A DNA stretch of 64,000 bases from Yuukianura sp. NJ FZ-2021 (lineage: Eukaryota): assembly GCA_046563655.1 (NCBI GenBank), contig CM102285.1:9176001-9240000 (forward strand), written 5' to 3'. Each line of letters starts with the position of its first letter. The first letter of the stretch is position 1. Positions 10,343 to 64,000 of this stretch are shown here, piece by piece. Below the pieces are notes generated by a model, which did no database searches, had not been told where the DNA came from, and worked only from the letters and a program-made list of their open reading frames with translations. The translations under genes were made by a program, and so were the position numbers.

Positions 10343-12097
10343 TCAGTCACAGACCATGTCGTCTCTGATTTCCGCAAGAAGGTGTTGAGTCCCAGCGTCC
10401 AGTTCTTGCAACACAACATTTCAACAGAATTTTCAATTACAATTTTTAAAAGACCAAAATTTTGACTTTGAATTCATAATTTTTGAAATTTGAAGAATCT
10501 CGTATTTACGGATTTTTCCGGTTTCCTCTTCGCATTCTAACACTTCCGAGTACGCAGTGTCCTTCCGCTCAATGTTGACCAGTACTTTGAGATCTGTTTG
10601 AACAAAAATTCAAAAGAAATTATCAAAAAGAATCCGAAGAACGCAAACACATAAAGCGTTAAAAAGCTAACCACAAACAAAGCTTTTTCCCATTTCCAGA
10701 AATTGTTTCAAATCTGCATCCGAAATAGAGAAGCAGTGTCCGCTAGCAGCAATTTGCTCTTCTTTAATTCGGACAGAATAAACTGGATATTCCCCAGTCA
10801 TTGATCTTCCATCTTTGTAAAACTGAATCCTCGACTGGTAGAATTTTGCTTCATCTGGATCTGCCAGTAACCAAACCCAGGCGAACCAATGTCCTGGTGA
10901 CTTTCTATTTAGCATGAAAAAGAAGTCATGGGAAAATGCCTGGATCCACTTTGGAATCCAATTGTAAGTGAAAGTTGCGTTATGCTTCCACTCAGGACGT
11001 GGTTTCAGTTCACTAGTTTCCAGAATGATTGTCGAAAGGAGTTGCGCTGAACGTACTGGCCAAAGTGGATGATGCTTCTTCAGATGATGTTTCAGCGAAT
11101 CGTAGTTGGGGAACCAACGACGACAAACACCAAAAAGACATTCCACTGGAATCGACTGAGCAAACTCCCGTTCAGAATTTTCAAGTATATTTTCTAGCTC
11201 TGAAAATCGTACAAACTCAGCTTATTGTCTGTGAATGTATTTTACGAATTTAGACCTTGTGCTTTTCGGTTAATTTTACCGAGACTGGAACATCCAAAAT
11301 CCCCCGAACACGCATCGAGACTTTGATTTGAGAGTGGCGGATTGGATGGATTGACCTCAATTTCTACCGTGACCTTGACAGCAAGTTCGTAATCCTGATC
11401 ATTAGAATCTCCTATAAGATTTTTCATGGTTGCGTCGGTGACATGGAAGCTGCTTTTGTCCTCGATAGATTCTGCATCCCATCCACGAAGCCTGTACGAC
11501 CGAACGGGATACTTCCCAGACAGAACATCTTTTCCTTTGACGAATCGGATATTGGCAAAAAAGCAGTTTTCATCTTGAGCGTTTCCAAGAATCCAGACCC
11601 AAGCATACCAATCTCCTTGAGCTTTCCGGGTGACCATGAAAACGAAGTCTTTATCAAAGGCATGGATAAATTTTGGTGACCAATCAGTATCTTCGAAGCC
11701 AATGTCACTACTGTTGAGGATGAATGATGTAGTGATGCAAGGAGTTCCGGAAGGACGCCAATGGTCGAAGTGGTCGAGGAGTAAGTGATGCTGAAGTTGG
11801 TGATAGGGAATACACTCTGTGCAAATCCCGATCAAAGGGCAAGGGACTTCGGTTGAAGCCTTCCACTTTGGAATTGGACCTACTTTAAAACAGTTTATGA
11901 TTTTTTTGGAGAAAGTATTTCTTAATAAGTTAATAGTAAAATTGGCACTCGCGTTTGATCATTTTACGATACTCAGTTGCATCAACGATTTCTCCATTGC
12001 TTGTCTTTTCGTTGACGCTGATATCATCCGGTTTTGTCTGAGCTGTGGCGCAGACTGGTGGCGGGCCTCCAAAAATTCTACGAAGGAAACTGATCAT
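10343..12097 (-). CDS. RING-less Siah/Sina-like protein with two tandem (zinc finger + TRAF-like substrate-binding domain) modules, ~470 aa, 5 exons
   Basis: Exons 12097-11953, 11882(or 11879)-11280, 11199-10672, 10593-10510 and 10404-10343 join in phase. Two C-x4-C-x12-H-x4-H fingers (CPLIGICTECIPYHQLQHHLLLDH; CLFGVCRRWFPNYDSLKHHLKKHH). Each is followed by a W-x-PK-x-I-x-AF..F.FM..RK..G.W.AWVW.L segment that aligns by eye to the Siah substrate-binding domain. AATAAA on the minus strand at 10271-10276. The first and last exons are less certain. Confidence 0.75.
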
Positions 12098-50766: not shown

Positions 50767-51268
50767 TTTGAGGGAAAAAAATGCTGTGGTTGTTACTATT
50801 ACACGGATAAAGGTGAAATAATATATTTCTAGGCAAGCTTTTATTTGAAATAGTTTTAGTGACTTCTATTAATTGCAATTGTTGAAAAGAGAAAGAATTT
50901 ACTCAACTGGGCATTGTTCCATTGTTTCGATTTACAATGGAAGGTTGTAATTTAACGTTAAGCAACTACGTACTTATAGAAACTATAGGAGTTATTTCCA
51001 GCTTAATAATCATGAGTTCGAAAAGTGGCCTTACTTTATGCTCATTCTACTCAAAATTGAAATAAGTAAAATTGAACCATTAATAAGTAGTACAATTTGT
51101 GCCAAACGGTACAAATGGAAAGGAATTTTGTATAGGGAAAGCAGTGAACTTTGAAAGACAAGGGTCAGGTTTTATTGATTGTCCGATGTATTATCATAAT
51201 TACGCTCATGACACTGACACTGCGATGTGTACACTTTCAACTTTCCAGATCTTCCAAAATGTAGCAGT

Positions 51269-52146
51269 TTACCAAAGATGTTTCAATGCAAATCGAGTCG
51301 TAGCCAATCCAAGCATAATCATTCCGACGATTCCGAACGTTCCTCGTGCTCTCTTCCGCGGATCACCGGTGTAGTAGCCCTTTGCGTATGAAATTCTGCC
51401 CGCAATCCAGATGATTCCGCCCAAAGTGCTAGAAATGATCAAAATAATTTATATTTTACTTTATGTTTAAATTTATGTTTAATTGAAATATAGTTTTTGC
51501 TGTTACGAAAAGTATGGCATCTCCAGTCCTCCAATGAGCAACATCAGCAGGAACTGTGGATAGTTCTCCAGCGTGTTCTGATGAGCTCGCTGCACACAGT
51601 TGAAGGCGACATTGTCAGCTGAATACATTGCTGCAAATTAGAAAAGTAAAGGTATAACATTAATTTTTCGTTTCCAGTTTTTAACACAAAGTTTTGGCAA
51701 ACTATTTGAAATTGTTACTTGCCTGGGTAAGGAACTTTATGTTCAGCTCTCGCCTGTCCGACTCGGATCGCCTTCCAGGTAAGCAGCATGACTGATCCAA
51801 TCGCTGTCATGACCACGAATCCGTAGCCTGATGGAATAGCACTCGTGTAAGGAGGAGGTATGACTGGCATTGGCTTCAGCGCTGGAAGAGCCGCTGGAAC
51901 GCATTTGGAAACGACTGCTTTCGGAACAGCCGAACCGAGACAAGCGTCGCAACTGTTGGCCACTGGTGGAGTCACGGCGGTTGGAGATGGTGGTACCGGC
52001 AAAGACGCAGGCGCAGGCGCTGGGCATGAGGGTGGTGCTGGACAGCACAGCGGCTTAATAGGTGGGCAGCATTCCTGGACTGGCGGTGGACAGCACGGCT
52101 TGACTGGTGCTGGAGGTGCTGGAACTTTTGGGCCTCCGCAAGACAT
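51269..52146 (-). CDS. MGST3: Microsomal glutathione S-transferase 3-like (MAPEG family) with a ~100-aa Cys/Pro-rich N-terminal extension, 235 aa
   Basis: Exons 52146-51723, 51630-51507 and 51428-51269. Motifs YGFV...[36 protein letters not shown]...[17 protein letters not shown]. The first intron is GC-AG. Confidence 0.93.
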
Positions 52147-52315
52147 TTCAAACTACAATTGACCTGGACTATACAACAAACCGAAAATTTGGAATTTAGA
52201 TGCGGACGATTTTGATGTGTCTTCGCTGACCTCTGAAGTAACACTGAGAAGCTGCTCTGTCAAATTTGTTCTCGTTAGTTGACAAATGTTTAAACAATTA
52301 TAGTAATATTGTTTG

Positions 52316-52329
52316 GTTACCATGGGAAC
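52316..52329. promoter_or_regulatory. RFX X-box upstream of the MGST3-like gene
   Basis: GTTCCCATGGTAAC on the minus strand, 170 bp upstream of the ATG. Forkhead-like TGTTTAAACA at 52287-52296. Confidence 0.7.
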
Positions 52330-53140
52330 AACATACGAACAAATTGTCTTGAGATCTTCTAAAAATAAAACTCAATTATCCTAAAAAAGCGAAATAAATC
52401 GTATTGCATTGACTTCCATGTATAGTACATGACCTGTCAAATTAATTTGCAGCTATTTGTGCGTTTTATTGTCTCAACTTAAAGAATCCCTCGGTGCCTT
52501 CGGTTTTTCTGTATTATTTACATAAATGAAGTATTAACTTAATTAGTATATTAGTTAATCATAATTACTTCAAACAGTATTATTTTATTCTAATGTTTAA
52601 CTCAGTTTATGTATTGGTAAGATGCATCTTAGGATCTTCGCATAGCATTTTCCTGTTAAATATTAATAATCCAGAAACGTGGTAACTCAATGTGAACTCG
52701 AAAACACGACACCATAAATTCACCATAATATATTATCATGTTCTATTAAATAATTCATTTTGCTTTGTATTAATTTCAAATGACTGTGTAAAATATTTCC
52801 AAAATTATTAAGGTCATTAATAAGTTTTTGTTAATTCTTCACGAAGACGCAATCATAATTAGTAAAACCCGAAGTAAACTTTCTGTTGTAGACATTCCAC
52901 GCAGTCTGTAAAGTCGAGCGACAACCTTATAAACTAAAACAGAAAAAAGATATGAAGTTTTGTACAAATTTTCCTTGACTGATTTTTTGATCCCCATTCA
53001 TTAACATTATTAAAAAGTTGCTGATATTTTTTAGGAATTAAGTTTGAAGAACAAGGATCAAGTTTGGAATGTTCGTTAGGCTTTCAAATATTGCGATTAG
53101 TTGTGATTAAAAGTTTAGGAAATCCAAAGTAGCAAATAGC

Positions 53141-56100
53141 TTAAATAGCAGCATTGAAGATCACGTTTCTCAATTGTGCTGCTGCGGATGTCGTCTCCCA
53201 AATATGATCAATGATTTTTTGCATTGGTAAGATTTTAGGAAAGTCTCTAGTTGCTGTTTTGCTGGCTTCATGGAGAGCCACAACGGCCTTGTGCAAATCA
53301 TCTGCCTTGGCCTCAACTTCAACCTTGACATTTTCGTTAGAAAAGTTGCGATGAATTGTGTCTCCAGCGAAGAGCATTTTGTATGCCAACAGAATAACAT
53401 ATTTCAAATGTCCATTGAAAATTCTAGGAGGATCGTTCTGATGTACAGAAGATATGAATGTTGAGATTGATTGAGACAGGAGAGGAGTAATGGTTCCAAT
53501 TTGTGCTGAATAGAATTCAAGAATTTGTTGATCTCTTGAATTTAGTAAACTAATTGCTTCCGTGACCTTTGGATCTTCTGCTGGAGCTGCAGAAAGCGTC
53601 ACATAGTCATAGTCTTCTTGTCCTTCATCTACTGTAGTTTGAGGAATGGCTGTCACCGATGCTGCAGAATTGGCTCTCTGTGATTTACAAATGTCAAAGG
53701 TTATCATTTGAATTAAACCTTTAATTCAAAAATTAGCAATCTTACACTTGTTTCTGACTCCTCAAGTTCTTGAAATATTGCTGTAGAATTGAGGGCAATG
53801 AAATTGGCAATTTCCGTTGCATCGTACTGAAGACTACGGGCACACAAAACCAATTGGTCTAAAGCGTCTCCCGTGTCTTTTTCGTCAGCCGAAACGCTAA
53901 GTCTGTCTACAGACCAAAGGTAGGCTTCCAGTTCATCAACATCTTTCTGAATTATTTGAGAAGCATTGGATACTGGGGCCAAAAGCTTCTGCAGTCGTAT
54001 CACAAGGGTGTCTAGTTTCAATTTTTTAGCGTTTAGAACAGCGCGGCCACAGAAATCGCCAAAGTCCTGAAAATTGTAACAAAAAATCAACATTTCAAAA
54101 AAGTTTCAATTCAATTTGAAATTTTGATAATCAAAAATTGAATTTACCTTAACGCCTAAGTTGAGCCGAACGCAGCCAAACCTAAGATCAGGCATAATTT
54201 CATTCAGGTTCTCCTTCAGTCGCCATTTTGGTTTGACAAAATTTAAAATTGAAGTTATTGCAGTAACTACTTCTTGGCGCAGTTTTTCACAAATTGTAAC
54301 TGCTGCTTTAGGACAAAGTGGTAAAATTTTGACCTCCAATGAAAGTGATGATGATTGACTATGCCTATTAGACTCAAAATTAATCGAACTTGCTAGAGAT
54401 ACTCTGGATGTGTCATGGGTCAAAGGCCTTCTCATGCCTGTCACAATGTCATGACCGCCGTGACATGATAAAGTCTCCGTTGAATCACACACTGACGCTG
54501 CTCTGGGCATGTCATAACTGGTATCAAAGGAAGAGGTACTCAAAGATGAGCTTCGGAGGGAACCGTTAAGTCCTGGAATCGAAGGTGGAACATCGTAGGC
54601 CTCAGAAATACTATCATTCTTTGAACTCACACTACAAATACTGCCAGCATTTTTTAGGCTTCCAGCATTTCTTAAAATGACTCCAAAATGTGTTTCGATC
54701 GAAGCATGCGGATTTGATGAACTGCTGCTACTTGCTGTTGAGGAAATACTGGATCGCTTGGACGCGTCTCTGCGTTGATTGATGTAGGAAGCACTTGATG
54801 GAGGCCGATATTGGACGCGGTCATATTTATTTTCAAAGACACTGACGCAGTTCTTTATGTCAGAGCGTGGAGTGTCATAAAGGTCAATGCTCTCCTTGGA
54901 ATCGCTGTTCGGAAGAGCTACACAACTGCGACTTCCGGACATGGATGACGACGAGGTCGAATTCGCTGAACTTGGCGGGCGACTAGTTAAGGCTGATGGC
55001 CTAGGAACGTCATAGTCCAACTCTGCTGGATTTGGCTTTGGTTGCGGTGGAGCCGATTTTAAATTAGCTTCTTGAAATAATTTTTCTAGTTCTCGTATAG
55101 CTTCATCGTTGGAATATATTGACGAATCTTCGGTGTGGGACCTGACTGAAACTGCATTTGATGTGAATGGAAATGATCGCTCTGAACCGGAACTTGTGCT
55201 CTGACTCGATGTGGACGATGAAGAAATAGATGATGCTCGGCTGCTACTTCCAGCCGATCCGAGCTTCAACGCATCACTTCCATGTTTTCGTGAACGCACC
55301 AATGAGGCTGAGGCGTAAATTGGCAACTGACTCTTCGGAACGTCATAGAGATCTAACGGATTTACTTCGACAGGAGGATTATAGCTTTTCGGGACATCAT
55401 AACTCGGGATAGCGTCTTCACCCTGCATAATTAACAATTCAAAAATTAGTTACCGTTGAAAATCTACAATTCAAACAAATTCCACGATACAACCAATTCA
55501 AAATCTAATATGGTTTTTAGATATGTGATTGTTTCCTGACAAAAATCTTACTGAAAAGTGAAAGTTTTCGGTTCGAACTAAGAACACTTTCTGAATGGGA
55601 ATTTCCGGTGAATCAGAGGTCTTTATGAAGGGAACCAGGAAGAATAACAAAAGATGTTTGGGATATATTTCCTTGTTTGCTTCCTGATTTTAAAATTTAG
55701 GGTGGAAACTCAAAGGGCATCTGGATATAGAACCCGATTTCGGGTATTCAACTGTTTCTAAGAACACAACCGTCCTGGTCTTGTCCTTTCATCTGAGGAA
55801 ATACTTCAACGCTCTCATGCGCCAAAATATCGATCTCTTACTAACTTCTGTTCAAATCCTGCTCACGTCGCTGAGTGACAAGTTCGGTTTGGTCAAAATC
55901 CTAAATTCCAAAACTAAATTGAAAACGTTTTCCTCTTAGAACAAAAATGCTTCGTTAAACGCGCATGATTGGACAATTCCTTCATTAGTTATGGTGATGG
56001 ATTACAAGCAGAAAGCTGACATTTGAAGAAACGGACCCGGCAAAAAAAAATGACACGTTCGCTTGAACTTACAACTAAAAAATTTATAACCATCCAGAGA

Positions 56101-61771: not shown

Positions 61772-63058
61772 TTCAGACGTACCTTCGAAATAAACCAATA
61801 CAATAACTAATTAAAGACTTTAATTTATGTATTAATTTACACACTAAAAATAAGGACAGAAACAAGCAGCAGCCCCTCAGCGATGATTAAAAAAACTGAC
61901 TGACCGACCAATGAGTTACTTCACTCATCAGCTAATAACTCCGAGTTATGTTAACACATATATGGGCATTCCCATCGCCGCAAAATGTATTTTAAAAGTA
62001 AAACTGAAGACAATCAATTTTTAACAAAAATTTTATTAATATAATAAACTAAAAAAAATCACAGTTAATTACTCAACTTTAATTAATTACTGACGCCGGG
62101 TGAATTCTGCGTAATTAATTAATTCCAGTTCCCTTTCTTTATTATATGCATAGGCAAATTCAAAGTTCCCTCGGAGTTTCTAAGGTAAGATCACAAATGC
62201 AATGTATGGGTGCGCCAGTTTGTCCGACCCAATCAAGATGTTATGTTATGTGTTATGATATTTTCCATGTTGTGTTGTACATTGCTCTTTTCTTTATTTG
62301 TTTAGATTGATAATAATTATTAATAAGTTAGTATTAGATTAACTATTAATCTAACACCGGTTTAACTATTAAACCGATGTTGCATTAGTTGTATCTAGTG
62401 ATTTAATCAAATCACCAACACAATATCAAACTGCACTGAAATATTTCTAATAACCAAGCTACCATTGGCAAGTACTATAAATGGGAAGCGATTGCAATAA
62501 AATTCGTCAGAGGTTTTCAATGAAACCAATCTGAGATGTAGAATGCGTAAATAAATACTTGCGACCACTTGGTTGATGGAACTTTTACCCTCCCCGACGT
62601 GGGTGATATCAACAAGTTTTTGATAAATGTTGAATACAATTCCGGTTTTCGTCAACCAAATTTCCCGCACCCTGTAATGTCCTCTGTGTTCTTAGAATTT
62701 AATTTTTATCCGAAAAAGACAACAAGGCATAGCCAAGCCAGCCAGCCGGTTTGGAATTGGACACGTCACGTCAATTTCTGAATTCGCTTCTTTAGCCAAT
62801 TTTTTTCTGTCATTTCACTAATCAATAGCTTCTTCGTTATTCTGGAAACACTTGTTGGAAAATCTGTTGGATATTTTAGGTGAGTATAAGAATTCGCCAT
62901 TTTTACTATTTTGCAGTGAGTTCCTGCGTAATGACTGTCAGTCGATAAAAACACACACCGGCATGAGATCTCCCTCTTTAGCCTTAAGTTTAAAGATGTT
63001 TTGATTGTATTTGACACTGACAGGTTGAGAAGAGGTCGACTAGAGCTACTACACTCTA

Positions 63059-64000
63059 ATGATGTCTTCGGCAGTCGTCGACCTGAGGGTGTTATTGTTG
63101 GTTCTACTGGGAATCACCGTTGGAATCTCTGCTGTACCGGAAGTGGTCAAAATCGAAGGACTGACTATCCAAAATGCTGATCGAATTGTCGATATTTCGT
63201 CTCAACTGGTTCAAGTTACAGATAAGCTGAAATTTGAAAACACGGGAGCTTCGCCAGTCAAATATGTCCTATTTACCACAGACGCCACAATGAAGGATCA
63301 CTTGGCTTATATTGGAGCGACCACAGGGAAGGATATTGCGCTAGATGTTAAAGTTGCCAAGCTTGCCGATAAGCCGAATCTACTGGTTCATAAAATACAA
63401 CTGAGCAATCCGCTTGCTGTTGGCAAAACTGTCGACATTGAAGTCGAAACCGTTTTCACGAAATTTCTTACTCCCTTCCCCAGCGAAATTACGCAAAAGG
63501 AGAAGCAGCTTGTCAAGTACATTGGCAGTCACTACTTATTTTCGCCTTACAAAACATCTAAACAAACAACCAAGGTTCTTTTGTCTTCTAAAAATGTGGA
63601 AAGCTTCACCAAGCTAAAACCGTTTAGCCACACAGACAACACAATTACGTTTGGACCTTACGAGAGTATTGCACCGTTCTCCACGAACGAATGCGTTGTA
63701 CACTATGAAAACAACAGTCCCTTCCTAACCATTACCAAAATGGAGCGTACAATTGAGGTTTCTCATTGGGGAAACATCGCTATCGAGGAGCACATCGACA
63801 TTTTGCACACCGGAGCAAAATTGAAGGTATGGAATTTTTCCTGGAAAGATGAACTTTCTTTAACATATGACTAAAAAACATTTTCCTTTACTAGGGATCG
63901 TTTTCTCGCTTCGACTACCAACGCGAGCACAATTCCGGAGTTAACTCGATCAAGGCTTTCAAAACCATTTTGCCAGCGTCGGCAAAAGATGTCTACTACC
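63059..64000 (+). CDS. RPN1: Ribophorin I (oligosaccharyltransferase subunit 1), 5' part; runs off the window
   Basis: Signal peptide, then [40 protein letters not shown], intron 63827-63894, then [11 protein letters not shown]...[14 protein letters not shown]. Confidence 0.97.

Follow-up and report, generated by a model that had tools for sequence, protein, structure and literature searches.

A springtail MGST3 paralogue with a predicted disordered N-terminal tail, a candidate cysteine-based tethering or sorting appendage

Few membrane enzymes are as small as those of the MAPEG family, which normally consist of little more than four helices. What, then, might about 100 Cys- and Pro-rich residues be doing at the N-terminus of one of them? 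The question is raised by a gene for an MGST3-type glutathione enzyme of the springtail Yuukianura sp. NJ FZ-2021. It lies on the minus strand of a stretch of 64,000 nucleotides (assembly GCA_046563655.1, contig CM102285.1, positions 9,176,001 to 9,240,000), which we analysed as a whole and call the window; unless stated otherwise, coordinates are those of the window. The original prediction saw in this gene a sperm or flagellar cross-linking system, i.e. a peroxidase joined to its own cross-linkable substrate under the control of an RFX X-box. We consider it probable, instead, that the protein is a springtail MGST3 paralogue whose disordered N-terminal tail of about 100 residues serves as a cysteine-based appendage for tethering or sorting the enzyme.

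We first established what the gene encodes. The coding sequence runs from 52146 to 51269 (minus strand) in three exons; once spliced, its 708 nt encode 235 aa and a single, terminal stop. Exon 1 (coding part 51723–52146) opens with the start codon ATG (52146–52144) and encodes the Cys/Pro-rich tail (residues 1 to about 107), the first transmembrane helix (TM1) and the first part of a basic loop. Intron 1 (51631–51722, 92 nt) is of the GC-AG type (CAG/GCAAGT ... TTGCAG/). Its removal restores the sequence ..VPYPAMYS.. as in relatives, while the use of the GT found two bases further would shift the frame. Exon 2 (51507–51630) encodes the MAPEG core and is followed by a GT-AG intron (intron 2, 51429–51506, 78 nt) and by exon 3 (51269–51428), which includes the stop TAA (51271–51269). 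A polyadenylation signal, AATAAA, lies about 95 nt past the stop (51171–51176). All these features are on the minus strand.

When the exons were scanned separately against Pfam, exons 2 and 3 matched PF01124 (MAPEG) with 36.8 bits (E 5e-9) and 25.5 bits (E 1.6e-5), respectively, for a cutoff of 23.4 bits; exon 1 alone had no Pfam match with E of 1 or less. The core motifs QRAHQNTLE and GRISYAKGY are intact in exons 2 and 3 of the window gene, as the original prediction had it, and the family alignment retains FNCxQRAHQNxxE and GRxxYxxGYYTG (with its Arg). All named database matches are annotated as MGST3 or 'GST 3, mitochondrial', the best being from Folsomia, Orchesella and Allacma. We placed the window protein in a tree of 41 core sequences, which had no MGST1, MGST2 or LTC4S rows, and there it nests inside the arthropod MGST3s. 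A Kyte-Doolittle scan at a threshold of 1.5 picked up TM1 and TM4 only, against the four helices of the MAPEG fold. From its sequence, the gene is an intact, springtail-specific MGST3 paralogue of the MAPEG family, and its predicted catalytic core is expected to work as in other MGST3s.

The tail is the peculiar part of the protein. There are 106–107 residues before the TM1 anchor GYGFVV, in the same exon and frame as TM1, with 11 Cys and 33 Pro, when standard MGST3s have about 4–15 residues in this position, mostly without Cys. The gene model thus bears out the earlier report of about 100 in-frame exon 1 residues ahead of the normal MGST3 start, with 11 Cys and three CCP motifs at octapeptide spacing. 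The CC pairs occupy residues 18–19, 26–27 and 34–35, eight residues apart, and each is followed by Pro. They fall within three octapeptide units, KPCCPPPV, QECCPPIK and PLCCPAPP (residues 16–39; 52030–52101, minus strand). Of 200,000 shuffled versions of the tail, 312 contained at least three CCP and 50 had three CC at equal spacing; at least three CC as such are not rare (13,568 versions). The threefold CCP pattern therefore exceeds what the composition of the tail would produce by chance. Tandem Repeats Finder reported no 24-nt DNA repeat under the CCP units and retrieved only two trivial repeats (6 and 9 nt). The tail also holds one CxxC (C66–C69), and a search of the ESM Atlas with residues 1–100 gave no usable match.

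Is this tail really translated? The most direct answer comes from an orthologue on a metagenome contig (L001, a locus of 5,276 bp), which has the same three exons and encodes 208 aa. It shares with the window gene the start, the frame and a similar N-terminus (MATCGAPK.. versus MSCGGPK.. in the window). Identity between the two proteins reaches 116 of 129 positions in the MAPEG core and 51 of 78 aligned positions in the tail, where the alignment leaves 28 window residues in gaps, a point that counts against a conserved tail. In the tail part of exon 1 the amino acid is kept in 45 of the 64 aligned codons, and 27 of these 45 use different codons. Differences at the first, second and third codon positions number 14, 10 and 40 in the tail, and 9, 4 and 29 in the TM1 part. 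The Nei-Gojobori method (NG86) gave a nonsynonymous divergence (dN) of 0.226 and a synonymous divergence (dS) of 2.05 for the 78 aligned tail codons, i.e. a ratio of 0.11, which is rough and tempers the argument because dS is saturated; dN in the core is 0.089. All six window cysteines that can be aligned to the orthologue are Cys there, the other five fall in indels, and the CxxC and two CC pairs are missing from the orthologue. Together, these patterns indicate that the tail is genuine coding sequence under purifying selection in its own frame.

The original prediction had suggested looking for orthologues with the extension and for a normal-length paralogue. The metagenome orthologue provides the former, Cys/Pro-rich tail included; as for the latter, Folsomia candida has shorter paralogues of 163 and 157 aa besides the extended form of 187 aa. 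Two other hits of the metagenome scan (L002 and L003) were discarded as chance matches to a single octapeptide, in unrelated GC-rich DNA with nearby stops. We also dropped a possible WW-binding motif, PPPY, found just before TM1 in the window and not retained in L001. The two loci differ slightly in intron 1, which in L001 (positions 1082–1225 of that locus) starts 6 nt earlier than in the window and has the donor GTATGT, with the junction protein VPYPAMYS unchanged. The difference resembles a minor instance of intron sliding or donor turnover.

The 5' end of the gene was placed by comparing the same two loci. Their best-conserved non-coding block contains an initiator-like TCAGT (52243–52247, minus strand; 616–620 in L001), which lies upstream of the ATG in both; the initiator (Inr) consensus is TCAGTY. 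Taking the A at 52245 as the putative transcription start leaves a predicted 5' untranslated region of 99 nt (52147–52245, minus strand), devoid of ATG and with an in-frame TAG at 52155–52153. In L001 the equivalent region spans about 127 nt from TCAGT to ATG and likewise has no ATG. The ATG at 52146 is the first of its open reading frame (ORF), with the in-frame TAG two codons upstream. We thus think that translation probably begins at this first AUG, on a start codon and a transcription start that are both predicted from the sequence. A longer upstream ORF (52153–52371, minus strand), with 72 open codons that include an ATG inside the X-box described below, is closed by the TAG at 52155–52153. 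We took it as a product of chance, and this open frame is not conserved: in L001 a stop comes one codon ahead of the ATG.

The alternative is that the extension lies outside the main protein, with a downstream start at Met93 yielding a normal-length MGST3 of about 143 aa. Several observations weigh against the tail in this respect. Met93 and its nucleotide context are conserved in L001, and the internal Met is also present in a relative from a 4.7-kb contig (P0003), which is called from the equivalent position (MKTMPVIP..). A comparable KPM directly precedes TM1 in another relative (P0014). Since P0003 is called from the internal Met, a tail-less form or an internal start is possible in some species. 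The region is also GC-rich, and its other reading frames are long and open too; yet this openness is no concern given that purifying selection upstream of Met93 is frame-specific. Conservation also extends to the motif at the N-terminal start and to the cysteines that align, and 14 database relatives carry tails within uninterrupted ORFs. Leaky scanning to Met93 as the main route was rejected, since the out-of-frame ATGs between the first AUG and Met93 are not depleted: there are three in the window (2.4–2.9 expected), which disfavours such scanning, and one in L001 (1.1–1.6 expected). We hold a main protein starting at Met93 to be very improbable.

If the tail is part of the protein, how widespread is it? 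We searched for relatives with the Folsomia protein as query (E up to 1e-10), which found 164 proteins, 120 of them listed. At least 14 among the matches listed have long N-termini (P0004–P0017, 179–296 aa). Together with the window protein and L001 they form one clade (support 99/96, 41 core sequences), in which the window protein and L001 are sisters (99/91). Shorter springtail-type paralogues, with 16–25 residues before the core, surround this extended clade in the tree and in turn lie within the arthropod MGST3s. Clade-wide counts hereafter refer to these 16 proteins. Their tails are 51–167 aa long, and every one of them has at least one Cys and more Lys and Arg than Asp and Glu. The first Cys is within the first nine residues in 13 of the 16 tails (the exceptions are P0008, P0014 and P0017), and six tails have a single Cys. 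Otherwise the tails cannot be aligned. Most are rich in Ala, Ser, Thr, Pro and Lys, with 1–4 Cys, and 14 of them are not Cys/Pro-rich. The Cys/Pro-rich version is confined to the window and L001, with Allacma (4 Cys, 10 Pro) as an intermediate.

An exhaustive phmmer search of 1.84 billion representatives gave a concordant picture. It returned 16 matches, of which only the product of L001 (P0002) covered the tail, the other 15 starting from residue 89. A tail match in the orthologue alone suggests that the Cys/Pro-rich form is restricted to a narrow lineage. The named members of the clade span Entomobryomorpha and Symphypleona, which suggests that the tail as such is old. On this distribution the CCPP form is a local elaboration of the clade tail and not a fused substrate module, as far as sequence comparison can tell.

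The closest named relatives illustrate the difference. Folsomia candida XP_021966114.1 (187 aa), Allacma fusca CAG7833624.1 (197 aa) and Orchesella dallaii CAL8100484.1 (196 aa) belong to the same clade and have the same core, preceded by disordered tails of 56–68 aa with a Cys near the N-terminus. Unlike the 107 aa of the window tail, with its 11 Cys, 33 Pro and three CCP, these tails are rich in Ala, Ser, Thr and Lys, have 1–4 Cys and cannot be aligned to it. Eleven clade members come from contigs of 0.9–1.3 kb with uninterrupted ORFs, while both genomic loci (window and L001) have two introns. Hence, these contigs are most simply interpreted as transcripts, in which case the tails would be present in mRNA. 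The reference genome of Folsomia candida has an intact copy of P0004, a member of the clade. Whole-animal proteomics of Folsomia, in the available part of the report (PMC12295829), lists two MGST3 gene IDs that cannot be mapped with certainty to P0004, P0019 or P0078; that they are the two shorter paralogues, as the order of the accessions would have it, is a guess, and the list speaks neither for nor against the extended form. The literature searched, from which subscription journals were outside coverage, gave no description of N-terminal tails in springtail MGST3s; a paper there that touches on both MAPEG proteins and springtails goes no further than GST gene counts.

Two side observations concern the N-termini of other family members. 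Six shorter paralogues (P0019, P0022, P0024, P0026, P0055 and P0125) share at the N-terminus a motif some 25 aa long, ..(L/F)(L/F)GGSC(L/I).., with a conserved Cys of its own, and P0078, P0062 and P0029 have GGSAL in place of the GGSC motif. N-terminal cysteines are thus found in at least two branches of springtail MGST3s. In addition, P0136, a genomic exon 1 read-through of 94 aa without Met in its call, has ..TCGGPKV.., akin to SCGGPKV in the window. The CGGPK start motif may therefore be older than the window/L001 pair.

To understand what the tail could do, we considered its structure and the side of the membrane on which it resides. AlphaFold2 (AF2) was run on exon 1 with the clade alignment. 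It gave no secondary structure for residues 1–107, where the mean predicted local distance difference test (pLDDT) scores of 10-residue blocks were 49–66, and a helix (TM1) at residues 108–136, with block means up to 91. There is no hydrophobic segment in the first 100 aa. The absence of both secondary structure and hydrophobic segments suggests that the tail is disordered and lacks a signal peptide. Helix 1 has the tail at one end and the TM1-TM2 loop at the other. The closest solved structures (phmmer with the clade member P0014 as query) are those of MGST2 (PDB 6SSR, E 2.5e-9) and LTC4S (E 3e-5). In MGST2, according to the accessible text of PMC7979937, the N- and C-termini are lumenal and loop L forms a cytosolic lid over the glutathione site; for MGST1, the portion of PMC5554250 at hand places the glutathione density towards the cytoplasm. 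The geometry of helix 1 and a glutathione site on the loop side would place the tail on the face opposite the active site, whatever the absolute orientation of the protein. By this structural reasoning the tail is not the substrate of its own enzyme, which would be unable to reach it across the membrane.

These elements suggest the following scenario. An old disordered tail, shared by one clade of springtail MGST3s, would have drifted fast in sequence while keeping a Cys near the N-terminus. In the lineage of the window and L001 it would have become rich in Cys and Pro, with the CCP unit occurring three times in the window. Such a tail could localise or tether the enzyme through its cysteines. 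The likeliest chemistry would be the reversible S-acylation of the tail cysteines, in a cytosolic tail, by analogy with the Cys pair at the C-terminus of human MGST3: the parts of PMC4192685 and PMC9087339 available to us report Cys150 and Cys151 as targets of S-palmitoylation and as succinated. A palmitoylated tail had been a side option of the original prediction, and the human analogy now places it among the favoured readings. Disulfide bonding would be the alternative chemistry if the tail faced the lumen.

The comparison with human MGST3 (O14880) has its own limits. Both proteins belong to the same subfamily and share the core motifs, and the human terminal Cys pair, which lies outside the membrane helices, shares its membrane face with the N-terminus. 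Unlike in the window, this pair is C-terminal, in a protein of about 150 aa, whereas the window cysteines are in the N-terminal tail and its C-terminus has no Cys. Human MGST2 and LTC4 synthase share the MAPEG fold, belong to another subfamily and have no N-terminal tail; the reports on their topologies, as presented in the accessible part of PMC7979937, conflict with each other.

On the membrane side of the tail the data point both ways. In all 16 clade members, the 15 residues that precede TM1 carry a net charge of 0 to +1, and the 18 that follow it one of +2 to +3. By the positive-inside rule, and by the measured topology of MGST2, the tail would be lumenal, and S-acylation does not take place in the lumen. 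Most invertebrate MGST3s also lack a terminal Cys at either end, so that such a Cys is not required for the enzyme. Both observations speak against S-acylation of a cytosolic tail. Cytosolic termini would be favoured instead by the reports of palmitoylation and succination of human MGST3 and by those on the topology of LTC4S.

We also considered a tail located in the lumen or in the intermembrane space, in which disulfides would staple the three subunits of the trimer, or join one trimer to another or to a partner, and stabilise the enzyme in an oxidising compartment. Beyond the charge pattern and the lumenal termini measured in MGST2 (PMC7979937, available part), this is suggested by N-x-S/T sequons in 4 of the 16 tails and by the six tails with a single Cys, which in the lumen could pair only between chains. 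Yet a net-positive N-terminal tail of 51–167 aa without a signal peptide would need to be translocated. Moreover, the terminal cysteines of human MGST3 behave, in the accessible text of PMC4192685, as free thiols that can be acylated and succinated, and LTC4S was reported with a topology opposite to that of MGST2 (PMC7979937, same part). This makes the lumenal disulfide explanation doubtful, with some chance of being right.

The cysteines might also have been gathered for another reason. The tail could be a thiolate metal-binding (metallothionein-like) or redox-buffering appendage, tied to the handling of metals by springtails living in soil. Its 11 Cys, with three CC pairs and the CxxC, and its predicted disorder in the absence of ligand would fit such a role. 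However, exon 1 has no Pfam match, L001 lacks the CxxC and two of the CC pairs, and a tail so rich in Pro, with single-Cys tails elsewhere in the clade, fits poorly with a metal cluster. We regard this function as improbable.

A tethering or sorting appendage, which we continue to favour, would have implications for the family. Fast-evolving tails across a clade that keep a Cys near the N-terminus, and that reach 11 Cys in one lineage, point to a cysteine-based layer of control or localisation. The springtail tails may parallel the palmitoylated C-terminal Cys pair of vertebrate MGST3. If so, the clade would offer a natural series to study on which side of the membrane the MGST3 termini lie and what the modification of terminal cysteines does.

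We then turned to the regulatory part of the original prediction. An X-box had been announced within a region 140–180 bp upstream, and we found it 170–183 bp upstream of the ATG (52316–52329, minus strand): GTTCCCATGGTAAC is a palindrome that matches perfectly, on both strands, GTHNYYATRRNAAC, which we take to be the RFX X-box consensus. In the window there are two such sites (three strand matches) for 0.37 strand matches expected, and 3 of 100 shuffles reach three matches. The second one, GTACTTATAGAAAC, lies at 50970–50983, about 300 bp past the MGST3 stop; it is AT-rich and non-palindromic, and is probably a chance match. The forkhead-like site fared less well. The palindrome TGTTTAAACA (52287–52296, strand-symmetric), 20–29 bp downstream of the X-box and 141–150 bp upstream of the ATG, does have the core TGTTTA/TAAACA, a weak motif, and it fails the stricter heptamer RYAAAYA.

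L001 has a comparable arrangement. Its sole X-box-like site with at most one mismatch in 5,276 bp is at 508–521, with one mismatch, 224–237 bp upstream of its ATG, and two RYAAAYA heptamers lie 12–25 bp downstream of it. Such a site is expected 0.93 times per locus, and at least one was found in 102 of 200 shuffles; by scaling, the probability of having it by chance within 300 bp is about 0.05. The MAFFT alignment of the two loci did not align their X-boxes to each other. The shared order of X-box, forkhead-like site, TCAGT and ATG in the window and L001 is suggestive, from one comparison of sequences. The literature that we searched had no publication joining MGST3, RFX and cilia. If the X-box is functional, this would be an unusual detoxifying enzyme in the RFX regulon.

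Do these motifs make the gene a sperm gene? In the sperm scenario the protein would be expressed in sperm or ciliated cells under RFX, and its own peroxidase would oxidatively cross-link the tail into a lattice, as a one-chain analogue of GPx4 and SMCP. The model is the mitochondrial capsule of mammalian sperm, where GPx4, which reduces lipid hydroperoxides, acts together with SMCP; like keratin-associated and Mst(3)CGP-type proteins, SMCP is rich in Cys and Pro with CCP-type units. The composition of the window tail resembles that of these structural Cys/Pro proteins, which, with the perfect X-box, the similarly placed site in L001, the forkhead-like motifs just downstream in both loci and the non-random CCP triplet, makes up the case for this idea. 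The window protein differs from GPx4 and SMCP in its enzyme mechanism, has no detected sequence homology to them, and would have its tail and its active site on opposite faces of the membrane. We found no sequence tie of the tail to the SMCP, keratin-associated (KAP) or Mst(3)CGP-type families with Pfam (E up to 1), the exhaustive phmmer search or the ESM Atlas. The peroxidase chemistry of MAPEG enzymes relies on glutathione, and to our knowledge these enzymes have no redox centre of their own through which protein thiols could react. The Drosophila case also weighs against expression in sperm, since Rfx, together with a forkhead partner, is there associated with ciliated sensory neurons and not with sperm.

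Other results point in the same direction. The separation of tail and glutathione site by the membrane follows from the available parts of PMC7979937 and PMC5554250, and 14 of the 16 tails of the clade lack the Cys/Pro-rich character. The reference strain of Folsomia candida, described as parthenogenetic in the accessible part of PMC10087712, keeps the clade member P0004 intact. The regulatory argument is itself affected by the mismatch, the chance level and the lack of alignment of the X-box-like site in L001, and by the lack of publications, in the literature searched, on MGST3 with RFX and cilia. With the opposite membrane faces, the ordinary tails across the clade, the parthenogenetic strain and the lack of homology to Cys/Pro proteins, the proposal of a sperm or flagellar cross-linking system is left unsupported, and we judge it highly unlikely.

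In a further-reaching reading, the old disordered tail of the paralogue would have turned, in one springtail lineage, into a CCP-repeat module akin to SMCP or keratin-associated proteins. The gene, driven by a conserved RFX (plus forkhead) promoter module in ciliated cells, either sensory neurons or spermatids, would produce membrane-anchored tails that, disulfide-linked or heavily S-acylated, coat an organelle membrane. We consider this improbable too. If true, a membrane capsule of the Cys/Pro cross-linked kind would have arisen independently here, with a glutathione enzyme as its base.

The rest of the window provides the genomic context. A gene for a scaffold protein of the p130Cas/CAS family (53141–55449, minus strand) is the upstream neighbour of MGST3, with about 1 kb between its end and the MGST3 start. 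It matches CAS_C (E 5e-29), has a weak match to Serine_rich and includes a long exon full of YDVP-type motifs. At 63044–63874 (plus strand) we found the first exon or exons of ribophorin I (subunit 1 of the oligosaccharyltransferase, OST; Pfam E 2e-66), whose closest database protein is 84% identical, with arthropods at about 50%. Finally, two adjacent and mutually similar long ORFs lie at 10667–11958 (minus strand), one of which has weak Sina/TRAF-like and C2H2 matches (E about 2e-4, below the Pfam cutoffs); they are possibly tandem SIAH-like genes.

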